This document shows, in pieces, positions 43,844 through 63,895 of a DNA stretch of 64,000 bases. Positions within the stretch are counted from its first letter, which is position 1. Every line of letters starts with the position of its first letter. The notes beneath the pieces were generated by a model. The model was not told where the DNA came from and did no database searches. It saw nothing but the letters and a program-made list of their open reading frames with translations. A program made the position numbers and the translations under genes. This DNA comes from Nitrosopumilus sp. (lineage in GTDB: Archaea; Thermoproteota; Nitrososphaeria; Nitrososphaerales; Nitrosopumilaceae), in NCBI GenBank assembly GCA_965238275.1, contig OZ250186.1, forward strand, positions 2,080,001 to 2,144,000, in the 5' to 3' direction.

Positions 43844-44943
43844 TACTGACGCGCAAAAGTTTTTGAGCAGATACCCTAGCCAACCGCAAAGTTTCTAGAT
43901 CAGGCTCCCTTCAGTGAGACATGAACGACACCAAACTGGAAGAACTCGAAAAGGTGTACAAAAAGGAAAAGGACCACAAGGTCCGAGCCAGAATGGTTGT
44001 GGTGCGCATGGTGCGCGTGCGCAACATGACCGTGGAGGAAACTGCTGACATTCAAGGACGTAGCCCAAACTGGGTCCGTAACTGGTTGCGCCGCTTCGAC
44101 GACGGGGGCCTGCAAGGCCTCCGTGATCTTCCACGATGCGGACGGCCCAGAAGGATTCCGCGAGATGTCATCGATGGAATAATTGCAAAGGCATCCTGCT
44201 GTAAAATCACACCCTCGGAGTTGCAGCAGAAGATACGCAAGGACACGGGCGTAAAACTTCACATCACGTACGTCAGGAAAATCATGCACCAGCACAACCT
44301 GTCTCCGAAGGCACCACGAAAGGTCCACGTCAATCGGGCCAACAAGAAGGCCGTGCAGAACTGGAAATATCGCTTCAACAAGCGGGTTTCACGCCTAGAA
44401 AAGGATGGTTTCACCGTATTAATGGAGGACGAGGCAATTTTCATACACGACGTGATAGTCGGCTGCAAATACTGGTCCCCGGTGGGCCGTTCCATAAGCG
44501 TGCCGTATACTGGCAGTCACAAGAGGATCGCAGCGTACGGTTCAATTGCCAAGGACGGCAGGCAGTTCTTCCGGACGTATGAGAAATTTGACGGGCCCAC
44601 GTTTGTCAGATACCTCAAGGATCTGCACAGGCACTTTGGCAAGGTGGTGGTGACCGCAGACAGGGCACCGCAGCACCGCTCAAAACTGGTAAAGGAATTT
44701 CTGCGAAATAACAAGGACGTCAAGATGATCTATTTGCCAAAGGGCTCGCCGTACCTCAACGCGATGGAAGAGTGCTGGCACCAGGGAAAGCGCGTCCTGC
44801 TAGTCTCCGAATATTACAGGACATTCCAAGACATGCACCGGGCAGTTTCGCTGTATTATCGAACCATCAGATTCAAGCTTGACCTTCTCAAATTTACCAG
44901 CCGAAAATATGAGATGCTGTGCAAGGACTTTTGATCGTCAGTA
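43844..44943 (+). mobile_element. IS630-family insertion sequence between pstB and phoU
   Basis: TIR TACTGACGCGCAAAAGTTTTTG vs rc TACTGACGATCAAAAGTCCTTG (18/22); TA at 43842-43843 and 44944-44945. Confidence 0.88.
43921..44934 (+). CDS. IS630-family transposase (uninterrupted)
   Basis: HTH, GRP, EDEA, ADRAPQH, LPKGSPYLNAMEECW. Confidence 0.93.
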   Translation: MNDTKLEELEKVYKKEKDHKVRARMVVVRMVRVRNMTVEETADIQGRSPNWVRNWLRRFDDGGLQGLRDLPRCGRPRRIPRDVIDGIIAKASCCKITPSELQQKIRKDTGVKLHITYVRKIMHQHNLSPKAPRKVHVNRANKKAVQNWKYRFNKRVSRLEKDGFTVLMEDEAIFIHDVIVGCKYWSPVGRSISVPYTGSHKRIAAYGSIAKDGRQFFRTYEKFDGPTFVRYLKDLHRHFGKVVVTADRAPQHRSKLVKEFLRNNKDVKMIYLPKGSPYLNAMEECWHQGKRVLLVSEYYRTFQDMHRAVSLYYRTIRFKLDLLKFTSRKYEMLCKDF

Positions 44944-59226: not shown

Positions 59227-59389
59227 ACAGCATCATGGATCGGTCTGGGATTTTAACTAATGGTGTCATGACGGGACGGTTATGATTCCCTCTACAACCA
59301 GGTACTGGATTACCTCTATGAAGGTGGCGTCATCTATTACATCGTCTGCCCACAGTCCTGCATTGCGCTTTACCCAGGACGGAATCTCA

Positions 59390-60835
59390 CTATAGCGGCG
59401 AGCGAAAGTTCGTGCAAACAGATCTCTCTGTAGCATGTCCTGATGCTCTTTCCGGCGCTCTGTCAGACCTTCCAATATTGTCGTCGTTGCCGGATCCAAG
59501 CCGACCTGTCGAATTGTTCATTCCAGAACCATCCGATCCGTGATCCTCGCGCCTTGTGACGACCTCGACACCTGCAATGGTGCCTCCACGATTCCCGTGG
59601 GCTTGGCCGCCAGTCTCCTCCGTATGGAGACAGTCATTATCCAAAATGTTTTTTGCCGCGTTCTTGTCGGCATGGTGGCACCATCCGCATGAGACGCAGA
59701 CAAATGATTCGCCGTTCCTGGATTTCTTGTCCACTACCCCGCAGGCAGCGCACCTCTGGCTTGTATGTGCGGATTCCACGCGTCTTGAAATTCCGCCTTT
59801 CTTTTTCATCTGCCATTCAAGCTGGATCCTGAACTCGCCCATTCTGGAATAGGCCATCTCGCGGTTCAACCCCGTCTTTGAAGCCGCCCCGCAGGATCGC
59901 CTCATCTTGGTCAAATCCAGGTCTTCCAGGAACAATACGGACAGTCCTTTTGTTATCCGCCTGGCAATGTCGGCCTCGTTGTGTTTTTGCCTGTTTGATA
60001 TCTTTTTCAATTCATGCGTTACCTTGCGGCCGATCTCTTTCCATCTTCTGGAGCCTGCCTGGCATCTTGATCTAAGTGATTTCAGCTGATCAATCCTGTC
60101 GCCGTCATGCCTCTTGCAGCCTCCGGGGACATTGTGCAGTTTTTCGTTCCCATGCTCGTCTGCGACTGCCGCAAGGTGCCTGACTCCAAGATCCAGCCCT
60201 GCCTTGCATCCGCCGCCGCCACCGCCTGTCGCGGGTTCGGGGTCTGGGACTTCTATCTGCAAATGCAGTTTGAATTCGCGATCACCATCCTTGGTCTTAC
60301 GCGTGACCTTGCCCGTGGTGTCAATCATCTGGAATGACACGAGCCTGCCTTCTGGAACCTTCGTGCGTGGCCTTGCTTCCCCGAGTCCGGGCAGAAACAC
60401 GGCTCCACTGTCTCGCAGTTTTGGCTTTGCGCGTGAATTCAGCGAGCGCAGCCTGGTTGTTTTCCTGCCGCGCCTCATCAGGCTGGACGGCTCGGTCCAC
60501 CGATTGTGCCTGTACGTCTTCTTTTTCCCCAGCTTGATCTGCTTCTTGCGCCAGATGCGCTTGTTGTGCTTGAGCCGGTTTGCCTTGCGGAATTTGACTG
60601 CCGCCTGGAAAGCCTGTTTTGAGGCGGCCTCGTGCATGCGGACGCTGCTGGCCAGGTTGAATTCCCTGCGCCATCCTGTTATCAGGTTGTTGATGTCAAA
60701 CTGTGTGATCCCCGGGTGTGCAAGTTTCATCATGATTGTCATGTCGTAAACGATGTCTGTTTCCCGGGAGCATTTCACGATCTTGCGTGACAGTTCCCGG
60801 GATTGTGTTATCTTGATGATTTTGCTGACAATCAT
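59390..60835 (-). CDS. tnpB: TnpB RNA-guided endonuclease
   Basis: RuvC-I GLDLG, RuvC-II LEDL, Zn finger TSQRCAACG..CVSCG, RuvC-III ADKNAAKNI. Confidence 0.92.
   Translation of the reverse strand: MIVSKIIKITQSRELSRKIVKCSRETDIVYDMTIMMKLAHPGITQFDINNLITGWRREFNLASSVRMHEAASKQAFQAAVKFRKANRLKHNKRIWRKKQIKLGKKKTYRHNRWTEPSSLMRRGRKTTRLRSLNSRAKPKLRDSGAVFLPGLGEARPRTKVPEGRLVSFQMIDTTGKVTRKTKDGDREFKLHLQIEVPDPEPATGGGGGGCKAGLDLGVRHLAAVADEHGNEKLHNVPGGCKRHDGDRIDQLKSLRSRCQAGSRRWKEIGRKVTHELKKISNRQKHNEADIARRITKGLSVLFLEDLDLTKMRRSCGAASKTGLNREMAYSRMGEFRIQLEWQMKKKGGISRRVESAHTSQRCAACGVVDKKSRNGESFVCVSCGWCHHADKNAAKNILDNDCLHTEETGGQAHGNRGGTIAGVEVVTRREDHGSDGSGMNNSTGRLGSGNDDNIGRSDRAPERASGHATERSVCTNFRSPL
59393..59640 (-). ncRNA. 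Putative TnpB omega-RNA scaffold overlapping the tnpB 3' end
   Basis: Lies between RuvC-III and the element end; hairpins CCACG/CGTGG (59586-59600), AGCAT/ATGCT (59432-59447), ACAGA-GAGA-TCTGT (59418-59431); boundaries inferred. Confidence 0.5.
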
Positions 60836-60903
60836 ACCTGTAGTTGGGATTTATTTTCTTAAAAAGGATCTCAAAAAATTGCACGAACTTTCGCTTTTCA
60901 CTA
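59393..60903 (-). mobile_element. Non-autonomous TIR element (IS630/mariner-like ends, TA TSD) carrying tnpB
   Basis: TAG-N5-AGCGAAAGTTCGTGCAA at both ends in inverted orientation (17-bp core perfect); TA at 59391-59392 and 60904-60905; excision restores the host frame. Confidence 0.85.
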
Positions 60904-62213
60904 TAGAATCGGAAGCGTCATCGGACTCGGTGGGGGGAAGGTCTATGACGCCCTCTGTTATCAGGAACTGGATTGCCTCTATGAAGGTGGCGTCATCTAT
61001 TACATCGCCTGCCCACAGTCCTGCATTGCGCTTTACCCAGGACGGGATGCTTACGGGTTCGTCGCTCACGGGTTCGTCGCCTGGAAATATCGTTATTGGA
61101 ACGAGCAGATAATCAGCGGGTCCCTCTGGAACAATATTTTCCTTAGCTTGGCCGTATATCCACACTGCATAGTCGACAGTGCCAGCATCCTCATCTACAG
61201 TCATTTCAAGAGAGTATTGGCCCGAGGTCGTATAGAGAACTCGCACACCTTCATCCTGTGCAAGTGATCTTATTGGCACACCAGAGTCATCCAGCACCAG
61301 AACATCAAACTGAACCTGGTTCAGGAACTCCGTGTCGTCCTCCTTTTTGATAAACTTGATAAGCCACTCCATCTCGCAGCCCTCGGCGGGATCCTCTGGC
61401 CCGTAGGAGACGTGTACCTGGTAGTGGTGGTGTTCGGTTGCCTTTTTGACCACGACTGTTCTTTGAACATCATCATCGCACCACGGCGGCAACAGATCAC
61501 TCCCCGTGGGGACTATGCCCGCAAACGGATTCTCCTGTACATACTGTTCATAGTCACGAAGTTCAAATTCATACTCTGTCGGAGGAATGCCTTCAGACAC
61601 ATGGACAAGTGTTGCAGCCTTAATCGGGAATGGGAAATCATCCACCACCCACACGTTGCTGACATATCCGCCCGTCTTCCAGGATATCCGAACAGTCTTC
61701 CATGTTCCTGCCGGAACAGTGACATCCTCGATCTCTTTTGGACGTATCTGCTCGCCGCCGATGTTTGCAATCTTGCCCCAGGATATATCAGTGAATGCCT
61801 TTGGGCCCTTCTGGCTCTCATCGATATTTGCAGTTGCATATGCAGACAGCCATGACACAGATGAGCCGAATGCACGCCTGTATTTATCCAGTTCAGGACT
61901 GCTGCCTGTCGGCTCAGGGATGAGTTTTCCCAGAGTCATATTTCCCACAATCACCTTGTTGCCGTCACGCACCACAACCTCTGCAAGCAGCTGTGTCTCA
62001 CTGCCGACTGTAACATCCCCCTTTATCCACATCTCAAAACTAAAATCCCTGCACTCCCTGTAGTCAAAATGACACATGGTATAATGAAAATAGTCGCCCT
62101 GCGCTAGTCCCTAGCCGACATACCATTCCCCCTCCTTGTCTACGCCGCCTGACTCGTACTGGGCAAATGCATCAGAAGAGTACGTCGCCAATAAAAGTAC
62201 CGTAATAGACAAG

Positions 62214-63895
62214 AGATCCTATGCAGAATGTGCCTGACGTGGCAAATCATAAAATCATGTCAGAACTGCGCTAGCCGTGGCCATATTTGAAAATCTCGTC
62301 TGCCGTATATTTTACAAATTTGTCTTGCACGTCCATGTGAAAAATCCAGTTTCCAGTATTGGATAATAAGGCACGTCCTGTGGATGTGCGGCATCCGTCC
62401 CCGGGGCGGCAGGTTGTTTCATGGGGAATGGTGGGGGAATTTGCACAAATATTGGATGCCGTGCGCGACATTCCTGCACTGCCTGATGCCACCTGCCTTT
62501 CACTCCGTCAGGCGGCTCGTGCCGCCCTGTCTCAGAGGCGCGCCCTTTTTTCGGCCAGCCTTTTGAGAAGGTCCGCGTCCCTGAGTTTTATTTCGTCCCA
62601 CATCAGATCCTGGTTTACCATTCCCGCAATCGCGTTGAGCTCGTCGTTGTACTCCTCCTCGGTGCCGTCGTACGGGTCAGTCAGCCTCTTGTACTGTTTC
62701 AGGCTTCCGATAACGTGCTCTATGGCCACACGGGAGCTGTTTACCCTCTTGTTGTAGGCGCGCTGCTTCTTTGTCAGGCCGCCGGTCTTTTTGTCGGCTC
62801 CACGCTTTTTCTTGTGCGGGTGCCTGATGTGCCATCCGGGATATTCCTCTCTTGTCCCTTGGTAGCCCTTGTCCATCAGGACGTCAGGCTTTTCCTTTTC
62901 GGGCACGTCCTTCTGGCCCATCCTTGCCGTAATGATTCCAAGGTTTGGCGGATCCTCGTTGAGCAGGGTCTTGTCGTGGACGCTGCCCGGAACGGTCTTG
63001 CTTATCGCCACTATCACGCGGCGCTTGTTGATCACGATGTTGGTATTGTACGTGTGCGCCTTCTTCTTGCCAGAGTACGTCTTTTTGCGCCTCTCCTTGT
63101 CCGCGGACCTTCTGACCCGGTTGTGCGTGCCGTCCACCATCAGTTCTCCTCCCCTCCTGCCGGGTATTATCTTCTTGCTCTCCTCGAGTGTCTTGGCCTT
63201 TTGTACAGCCTCGCTGATTTTGCGCGGCGCCGTGCCTGTCTCGCCTAGCAGCCTGGTCATCAACGGGAGATACCTGGAGACGGTGGCCTGGTCGACGCCA
63301 AACATCGCGGCAAGGGCTTCCTGCGGTATGCTCAGCCTTGTCCGAAGCAGCCACGGCAGGTACGCGTGCCTCAGGGGCAGGATGCGCCTGCTCCCGGAGT
63401 TTTTCGATCTGTTCTCGATTTCCCGGAAGAGCGCAGTCTCCCCGTTCCGCTCCAAAAGCTCCTCGAGGCGGTTCAGCGTGTGGCCAAACTTTTCCGGGGT
63501 GCGCAGCGTCATGGCGTGCAGGAATTCCGGATATTTTATGATGTCGTCGAGAACCCTCGACGTGACGGTCCAGTGATCAGTCAGGCGTTCCTTGAGCGCC
63601 TCGCACTTCTGTCGGTCTGTCCTGCGTGCTTCCCTGAGGGCCCTGATCCTCTGCCGGCAGGATTCATCCGACTCCCTGAGCGCCTCGTTTTCCTGCCGTA
63701 ATCTCTGCACCGTTGGATCGACTAGCATTGCCATCACGGTGTGGCGTAAAAATCACCGATCTTAACGTTTCGGTTATCCTTCTTGGATTGGCATGCTTTA
63801 CGATTCTGTGGATATTCGGCCGCATGTGGTGCCGCACGTGGGAATAACCCAATTTAATTCAGTTTTTTAAATCAGGCACATTCTGCATGAGATCT
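62214..63895 (-). mobile_element. IS5-family (ISL2-like) insertion sequence
   Basis: 24-bp TIR AGATCCTATGCAGAATGTGCCTGA vs rc AGATCTCATGCAGAATGTGCCTGA; 3-bp TSD AAG at 62211-62213 and 63896-63898. Confidence 0.88.
62532..63737 (-). CDS. IS5-family DDE_Tnp_4-type transposase
   Basis: LAAMFGVDQATVSR HTH, VDGT, YSGKKKAH, GSVHD, DKGYQG, RVAIEHVIG. Confidence 0.92.
   Translation of the reverse strand: MMAMLVDPTVQRLRQENEALRESDESCRQRIRALREARRTDRQKCEALKERLTDHWTVTSRVLDDIIKYPEFLHAMTLRTPEKFGHTLNRLEELLERNGETALFREIENRSKNSGSRRILPLRHAYLPWLLRTRLSIPQEALAAMFGVDQATVSRYLPLMTRLLGETGTAPRKISEAVQKAKTLEESKKIIPGRRGGELMVDGTHNRVRRSADKERRKKTYSGKKKAHTYNTNIVINKRRVIVAISKTVPGSVHDKTLLNEDPPNLGIITARMGQKDVPEKEKPDVLMDKGYQGTREEYPGWHIRHPHKKKRGADKKTGGLTKKQRAYNKRVNSSRVAIEHVIGSLKQYKRLTDPYDGTEEEYNDELNAIAGMVNQDLMWDEIKLRDADLLKRLAEKRARL

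Follow-up and report, generated by a model that had tools for sequence, protein, structure and literature searches.

The pairing of TnpB with DDE transposons is documented: an IS630-linked TnpB branch (DDE-6) whose ends are symmetrical, six DDE-linked TnpB groups with inverted repeats, and solo TnpBs that have matching ends and are moved in trans have all been described (PMC10691335), and a review names ISL2, IS630 and IS1031, and not IS1595, where it treats DDE-linked TnpBs (PMC13565253). The same review (section 6.2) regards the benefit of an RNA-guided nuclease to a cut-and-paste transposon as an open question. For IS605, a retention model has been put forward (preprint 10.1101/2023.03.14.532601), and the restoration model of IS605 is not transferable unchanged, because cut-and-paste excision leaves a break and not a clean donor joint (PMC2170065). 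For the Fanzors, sequence signatures have been defined, and the TIR and the target duplication have been placed in the RNA scaffold (PMC10711439). The target of IS630 is given in one table as CTAG (PMC2577343).

Here, we compare with these systems a tnpB locus of Nitrosopumilus sp., an archaeon with a genome of a single contig of 2.2 Mb. The window, that is, the whole stretch of DNA that was analysed, has 64,000 nucleotides; its features are given by plain coordinates and genome positions as C1:start-end, and G100, G110 and G367 are further genomes.

59393..60903, minus strand: non-autonomous, tnpB-only element of 1511 bp, delimited by sequence, inverted arms and genome copies
60904..60905, no strand: left copy of the TA target duplication, from end pairs, reconstructed empty sites and the G110 ortholog
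59391..59392, no strand: right copy of the TA target duplication, from the same evidence
60878..60903, minus strand: left TIR, its first 21 nt the same as those of an IS630 left-end relic at C1:1082172
59393..59418, plus strand: right TIR, identical at 22/26 nt to the right end of an intact IS630 at C1:1873255-1874346
59390..60835, minus strand: tnpB ORF of 481 aa, with D215/E304/D390 and a C4 Zn finger, its stop made of the duplicated TA and a host G
60859..60865, minus strand: TTTTTAA, a TATA-like sequence 24-30 nt ahead of the tnpB start codon and, by the archaeal consensus, a possible promoter
59266..62077, minus strand: host gene that the element interrupts, with its C-terminal domain in duplicate; the G110 ortholog is uninterrupted

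The element has the terminal inverted repeats and the TA duplication of the IS630 family, and an ORF and Pfam search found tnpB as its sole gene and no IS630 DDE transposase. The 1511-bp extent with inverted-repeat ends and a TA on each side, as given in the preliminary description of this DNA, was confirmed (inverted ends of 26 bp; arms of 28 nt, 86% complementary). It had further been noted that deleting the element and one TA restores the host frame, which is correct but leaves the boundary undecided, as the frame also survives if another CTA is taken out. The boundary is instead given by reconstructed empty sites (one TA, C retained), which aligned without gaps to in-genome paralogs at 3/18 sites, the remaining 15 giving no hit that spans the junction, and to the G110 ortholog of the interrupted gene. 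At a fourth site, the reconstruction restores TLTTIGYGD, presumably a potassium-channel motif. The gap-free empty sites of the three paralog sets and the ortholog rule out C as the left-end base of an element without duplication; the left-end C thus comes from the host, and the duplicated sequence is TA. The interrupted host gene itself matched no family in a Pfam profile search, and a sigma-70 promoter scan was set aside since the host is an archaeon.

BLAST and end scans of the genome recovered 24 right ends in total and 18 left/right pairs, no two of which have the same flanks. TA stands on both sides of 17 pairs and TG on both sides of one (C1:2157231-2158720), which still has the left-end C. 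Because the pairs share their ends but differ in their flanks, the ends are not due to chance. Copies with the same ends, TA junctions and different flanks, which the preliminary description had proposed to look for, thus exist; differing internal boundaries or an empty site away from this TA, both named there beforehand as counting against it, were not seen, the copies having the same boundaries and the empty site mapping to this TA. In public DNA runs, depth over the element is far above that of its flanks in two (roughly 20-50 fold in one), and the loose ends listed lie at 60906, just beyond the left-end C, in three runs, and at 59389-59391 on the right. Holders of the element among public runs include a sponge metagenome, and the public RNA runs, which are contigs, indicate presence only. 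The family occurs in 3/151 genomes of the genus (a further, fourth match belongs to the sister family described below), and the wider TnpB clade in 5/56 sampled genomes of the family and 0/344 sampled from the phylum's other families; a plasmid tblastn gave, among the matches listed, only generic TnpBs of about 27% identity.

Several other observations were made on these copies and their neighbourhood. One copy (C1:950965-952543) is chimeric, with a diverged 5' part, a 3' part that hardly differs from the window copy and then an older right end; the right flank at C1:951043 is not host DNA. Insertions of other mobile elements recur near AAAGTT within the left end of TnpB elements (C1:827297-828605, 2148252-2149881, 644168-645958 and upstream of 502710), and an ORF common to three of these insertions resembles, as we read its motif, IS110. 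The window also holds a DDE_Tnp_4 transposase element (62532-63737) with about a dozen near-identical genome copies and ends unrelated to those of the TnpB element. In G110, gene-less elements of ~150 bp with the same IS630-type ends were found at C1:820979-821128 and 1710259-1710406.

The encoded protein has the profile, RuvC D-E-D, Zn finger and fold of a TnpB (OMEGA) nuclease. It matches PF07282 and PF01385, and NF040570 above cut-off, and falls below the cut-offs of both the IS200 and the IS607 TnpB NCBIfam models. Its AlphaFold model (mean pLDDT 75) is closest to ISDra2 TnpB (PDB 8h1j, Foldseek E 2.5e-16), with residues 404-481, at pLDDT below 50, predicted to be disordered. The three RuvC acidic residues, the four Cys of the Zn finger and the stop codon formed by the duplicated TA and one flanking base (TAG, with host G) are as previously reported. 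In common with the TnpBs of IS200/IS605 and IS607 elements (ISDra2), the locus has the fold, the D-E-D, the Zn finger, a 3' RNA overlapping the ORF and a conserved motif beside the left end. Unlike in those elements, which are marked by an HUH or serine TnpA and by a lack of TIRs and duplication, TIRs and a duplication are found here, TnpA is not, and the ORF extends to the very end of the element. Among the 24 copies, 16 have a frame unbroken over residues 1-400 and all seven catalytic and Zn residues (D215, E304, D390 and the four Cys), and eight are broken or partial. The core is under purifying selection (five diverged pairs of copies give dN/dS of 0.16-0.19), and in four pairs dS of the tail (0.31-0.46) is about half that of the core (0.68-0.98).

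The shell of the element is like that of IS630/Tc1/mariner elements (ISY100, PMC2170065; PMC2577343), with TIRs of ~24-26 bp, a TA duplication and a preference for C beside TA, and unlike it in that tnpB replaces the transposase and the flank preference is one-sided rather than palindromic. The genome has 34 DDE_3 matches, among them intact IS630 ORFs with related ends at C1:1873255 and 2123844, the latter lying in the window itself as a possible source of transposase.

43844..44943, plus strand: candidate helper, an IS630 element whose ends are related to those of the TnpB element (15-18 of 26 nt) and whose ORF has 338 aa

In G367, an archaeal genome of 2.6 Mb with 111 IS630 matches, the left end of the TnpB element sits on full IS630 copies (NF033545), and in G110 the ends of the TnpB element are nearly equal to those of that genome's own IS630s. 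The element thus shares its ends with autonomous IS630, as a non-autonomous derivative does, and these end sequences make its mobilisation in trans, by the transposase of a resident IS630, likely. An autonomous element with both IS630 transposase and TnpB, for which the preliminary description had suggested a search, was found neither among the 34 DDE_3 matches of the genome (one of which lies in a 6-kb nested insertion with ends that differ from those of the tnpB element), nor in 17 related loci with 3 kb on either side or in L012, nor in JGI metagenomes (protein scan and DNA pattern) or IMG/VR. Three copies that have additional DNA within the left end were considered as such elements and contain nested elements, not IS630. 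The proposed capture of TnpB by a DDE cut-and-paste system therefore stands as far as the IS630-type TIR/TA shell with its matching IS630 ends is concerned, and not as an autonomous IS630-TnpB copy. With the DDE-6 and solo TnpBs (PMC10691335) the element shares its symmetrical ends of IS630 type, its occurrence as solo copies, here likely moved in trans, and a TnpB 3' end near the element end. DDE-6 elements differ in that the transposase and a distinct HTH gene lie in cis, and they include copies from Klosneuvirinae (PMC10691335), whereas here the host is an archaeon and neither gene was found in the element or related loci. In a viral fold search, the TnpB-like proteins of Klosneuvirus, Edafosvirus and Hokovirus were 12-18% identical, no closer than other TnpBs.

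A structured RNA is predicted at the 3' end of the gene.

59391..59650, minus strand: predicted omegaRNA scaffold, entirely within the ORF tail and including the right TIR, from consensus structure and covariation
59371..59390, minus strand: predicted guide, the host flank past the duplicated TA, by analogy with TnpB/Fanzor architecture (PMC10711439)

In an alignment of 12 elements, a consensus structure appears only in the last ~260 nt: three terminal windows reach consensus energies between -42 and -62 kcal/mol and have two-sided changes at 12-23 pairs, against -8.6 kcal/mol or weaker and 0-3 such pairs in 11 upstream windows of the same identity. With nine sequences, 17/40 pairs have two-sided changes, which is matched by 1/500 shuffles and compares with 3-6 pairs in slid controls; these covariation counts are overstated, as the 9-12 related sequences counted had also supplied the structure. 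The fold of the single sequence is unexceptional (z -0.37), and a search of Rfam gave no match beyond a SECIS hit below threshold. The structure is conserved across proteins that are 44-56% identical, the right TIR pairs inside the predicted fold, and a genome search with an RNA model built on the 3' end gave 25 loci, one of which is an older subfamily (44% identical). We consider it likely, on the strength of this modelling, that the RNA is an omegaRNA overlapping the disordered protein tail. A self-target scan of 24 predicted guides gave a CTA-preceded match at 2-3 mismatches for three and none closer.

This layout resembles that of Fanzor1 and Fanzor2* in TIR transposons (PMC10711439, PMC10530073), namely a non-autonomous TIR element with the TIR in the predicted scaffold and the duplication adjoining the guide; it differs in that the locus is prokaryotic and its TnpB lacks the DPG motif and has the canonical RuvC-II Glu. 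Residues 215-217 are DLG, E304 aligns with the canonical RuvC-II Glu, and the Fanzor and pro-Fanzor signatures (DPG at RuvC-I, a shifted RuvC-II Glu, or Ealt) are absent. The Fanzor-like architecture previously suggested is thus retained as a layout and given up as kinship; judged by these motifs, the layout is convergent with that of Fanzors.

One host base next to the left end is constant.

60904..60908, minus strand: host-derived motif T-N-C-T-A adjoining the left end, the predicted TAM

In the genome, C precedes TA at 22/22 left ends and 10/24 right ends (Fisher p 1e-5), counts that omit two orphan left ends (C1:1082172, an IS630 end, and the unassigned C1:1974595) and include the one non-host right flank (C1:951043), the dropping of which lowers the right-end count. 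The base two positions further out is T at 18/22 left and 13/24 right ends. In G110, one duplicated end being omitted, C precedes TA at 17/17 left and 7/18 right ends (p 1e-4), and further out A rather than T is found. The ends of the G367 helper IS630s are by comparison symmetric (C at 26/37 left and 38/48 right ends, in a hand count of 84/97 rows and one further end that leaves out 13 rows of other or unassigned types). Since TA precedes the guide in filled and empty alleles alike, TA alone cannot discriminate between them; what differs is the base before TA, which is C in the empty allele and, in the filled one, the A that terminates the element, and on this reasoning the TAM would have to extend beyond TA. 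From the flanks we predict a TAM of the CTA type, perhaps TNCTA, which refines the earlier prediction of a TA-containing TAM.

Our preferred reading, to which we assign a probability of roughly 70%, is that of a multi-copy, TA-duplicating, IS630-ended tnpB element that is moved in trans, and of a TnpB which, with an RNA from the tail of its own mRNA, cleaves empty alleles with CTA and so favours such sites. It builds on observed boundaries, TA duplication, copy number, IS630 end identity, purifying selection, a covarying RNA and the one-sided C. In the proposed model, the IS630 transposase would excise the element and insert it at TA, preferably with C beside it, and the tnpB transcript would pass the right TIR into the flank to give a scaffold, TA and a guide of 16-20 nt. 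The TAM would reach past TA, where C in the empty site would be told from A in the filled one, and an empty sister or incoming allele would be cut and repaired from the filled allele, so that only insertions with a left-end TAM would be copied. That TnpB causes the one-sidedness of the target is a tentative proposal, which we rate at rather less than an even chance. The same element and helper could produce it otherwise, if the transposase and the end sequences set the C, the left end demanding it and an altered right end relaxing the demand, in which case a CTA-type TAM would merely be adapted and would filter nothing; this we regard as a serious contender that still falls short of an even chance. 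As to the cause of the one-sided C, cutting of empty alleles and a C set by the transposase stand at about even odds. In the G367 subfamily closest to the shell, 13/13 left ends and 25/29 right ends have C, four of the 26 nt of the TnpB right end deviate from those of the helper, and the C preference of helper subfamilies ranges from 3/10 to 13/13. Because the closest helper is C-rich at both ends and the IS630 target is given as CTAG (PMC2577343), the left-end C may stem from the transposase, and a relaxed right end may be the odd feature. Against a C set in this way, the G110 copies in which both ends start with TAGTGAC or close to it remain one-sided, and helper ends in that genome have C at 4/7 and 2/5; TACTGAC-type left ends have C in 10/14 cases on G367 helpers but in all cases on TnpB elements; and a one-sided base recurs in another shell (IS1595).

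Two further explanations were weighed against the preferred reading. TnpB could be an inert or non-cutting passenger of an element that spreads solely as a large MITE: its cleavage is a prediction, a third of the copies (8/24) are broken or partial, and the gene-less elements of G110 have the same ends. The low dN/dS with retention of the catalytic residues, and the conservation of the RNA structure across divergent proteins, make this unlikely. Another TA-targeting DDE enzyme (e.g. of IS5 type) or an IS200/IS605/IS607 TnpA could also be the mover, the IS630-like ends being ancestral relics. Many DDE_Tnp_4 copies and IS605-type TnpBs are indeed present in the genome, and no intact IS630 in it has both ends identical to those of the element; yet the DDE_Tnp_4 copy of the window has unrelated ends, related ends around transposase genes flank IS630 ORFs, and TIRs with a 2-bp duplication are not the behaviour of IS605 or IS607 (PMC13565253), so that we consider such a mover very improbable.

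With regard to novelty, mariner-type association had been taken as characteristic of eukaryotic Fanzors, a statement not supported in view of the IS630-linked DDE-6 TnpBs (PMC10691335); the pairing of TnpB with IS630 is thus already published and its novelty had been overstated. The present family is a variant of DDE-linked TnpB and probably arose from an independent capture, and the figures or additional data of PMC10691335 may already include its clade. Copy number, the constant left-end C, the helper and the RNA structure go beyond the preliminary description, and what appears to be new is the one-sided C and a sister family in an IS1595 shell. In the literature searched, with thin coverage of subscription journals, no description was found of TnpB in IS1595 shells, of the archaeal family or of a one-sided target in a DDE shell. 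The family makes the benefit of the nuclease to a cut-and-paste transposon testable: its natural insertions in the two complete genomes number in the dozens, candidate helpers have been identified, elements that have the same ends but no TnpB can serve as controls, the TAM is predicted, and a sister family occupies another shell. The family is also a source of compact nucleases whose predicted TAM is short and contains C.

The sister TnpBs, of about 30% identity, lie between GGGAATTA ends of IS1595 type at the following loci.

C1:1130185-1131612, 1180809-1184571 and 1086456: sister TnpB loci of the same genome, in IS1595-type shells
L017-L021, L024, L026-L028, L031, L035, L037, L136-L146 and L171: sister TnpB loci of relatives, in IS1595-type shells

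Their stop codon lies inside the right TIR, an 8-bp duplication with at most one mismatch was found in 25/32 end pairs examined, and the same ends and duplications occur on autonomous IS1595 elements in G100. G precedes the left 8-bp duplication in 18/25 cases against 6/25 at the mirror position (p 0.002), counts in which the loci are kin and not independent and for which the IS1595 control is too small; here, too, the host base (G) differs from the element's last base (C). DDE-5 TnpBs are similar in having a motif upstream of an 8-bp stretch, the counterpart of the G before the duplication, and different in that their motif is TA, 8 bp upstream of the end (PMC10691335 and its supplement). In a quick IQ-TREE analysis of 40 proteins, the IS630-ended TnpBs form one clade (SH-aLRT 100) and the IS1595-ended ones two weakly supported groups within a shared larger clade (99), and the RNA model gives weak matches at 3/11 sister 3' ends (E 2e-5, 1e-3 and 0.14). 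It is conceivable, and we put it forward with clearly less than even confidence, that a TnpB-omegaRNA cassette hops between unrelated shells (IS630 with TA, IS1595 with 8 bp, perhaps a third) and re-tunes its TAM to the base outside the duplication, acting as a gene drive that chooses which insertions persist. If so, a transposase that by itself prefers symmetric targets would bear a one-sided signature, and the cassette would provide a living prokaryotic model for how Fanzors came to serve many DDE transposons.

A distantly related TnpB at C1:786921-789723 lies between near-identical inverted ends of ~50 bp (GGTTCTGTTAAC...) with an 8-bp duplication, and is apparently an independent capture; the locus also holds a nested, multi-copy transposase gene. 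IS6 (PF13610) was considered as its helper and rejected, those ends being absent around six matches. TnpBs of the same larger clade at C1:1933138-1934502 and L034 have a right end resembling the one at 786921, and the same site is found in G367; a left end was not found at these two loci. The 873-aa protein P0080 has a wider-clade TnpB at residues 398-839, preceded by an N-terminal half that has no Pfam match. In G100, two autonomous IS1595 elements (L130 and L131) carry a passenger gene, which from its motifs we take to resemble a DNA methyltransferase.
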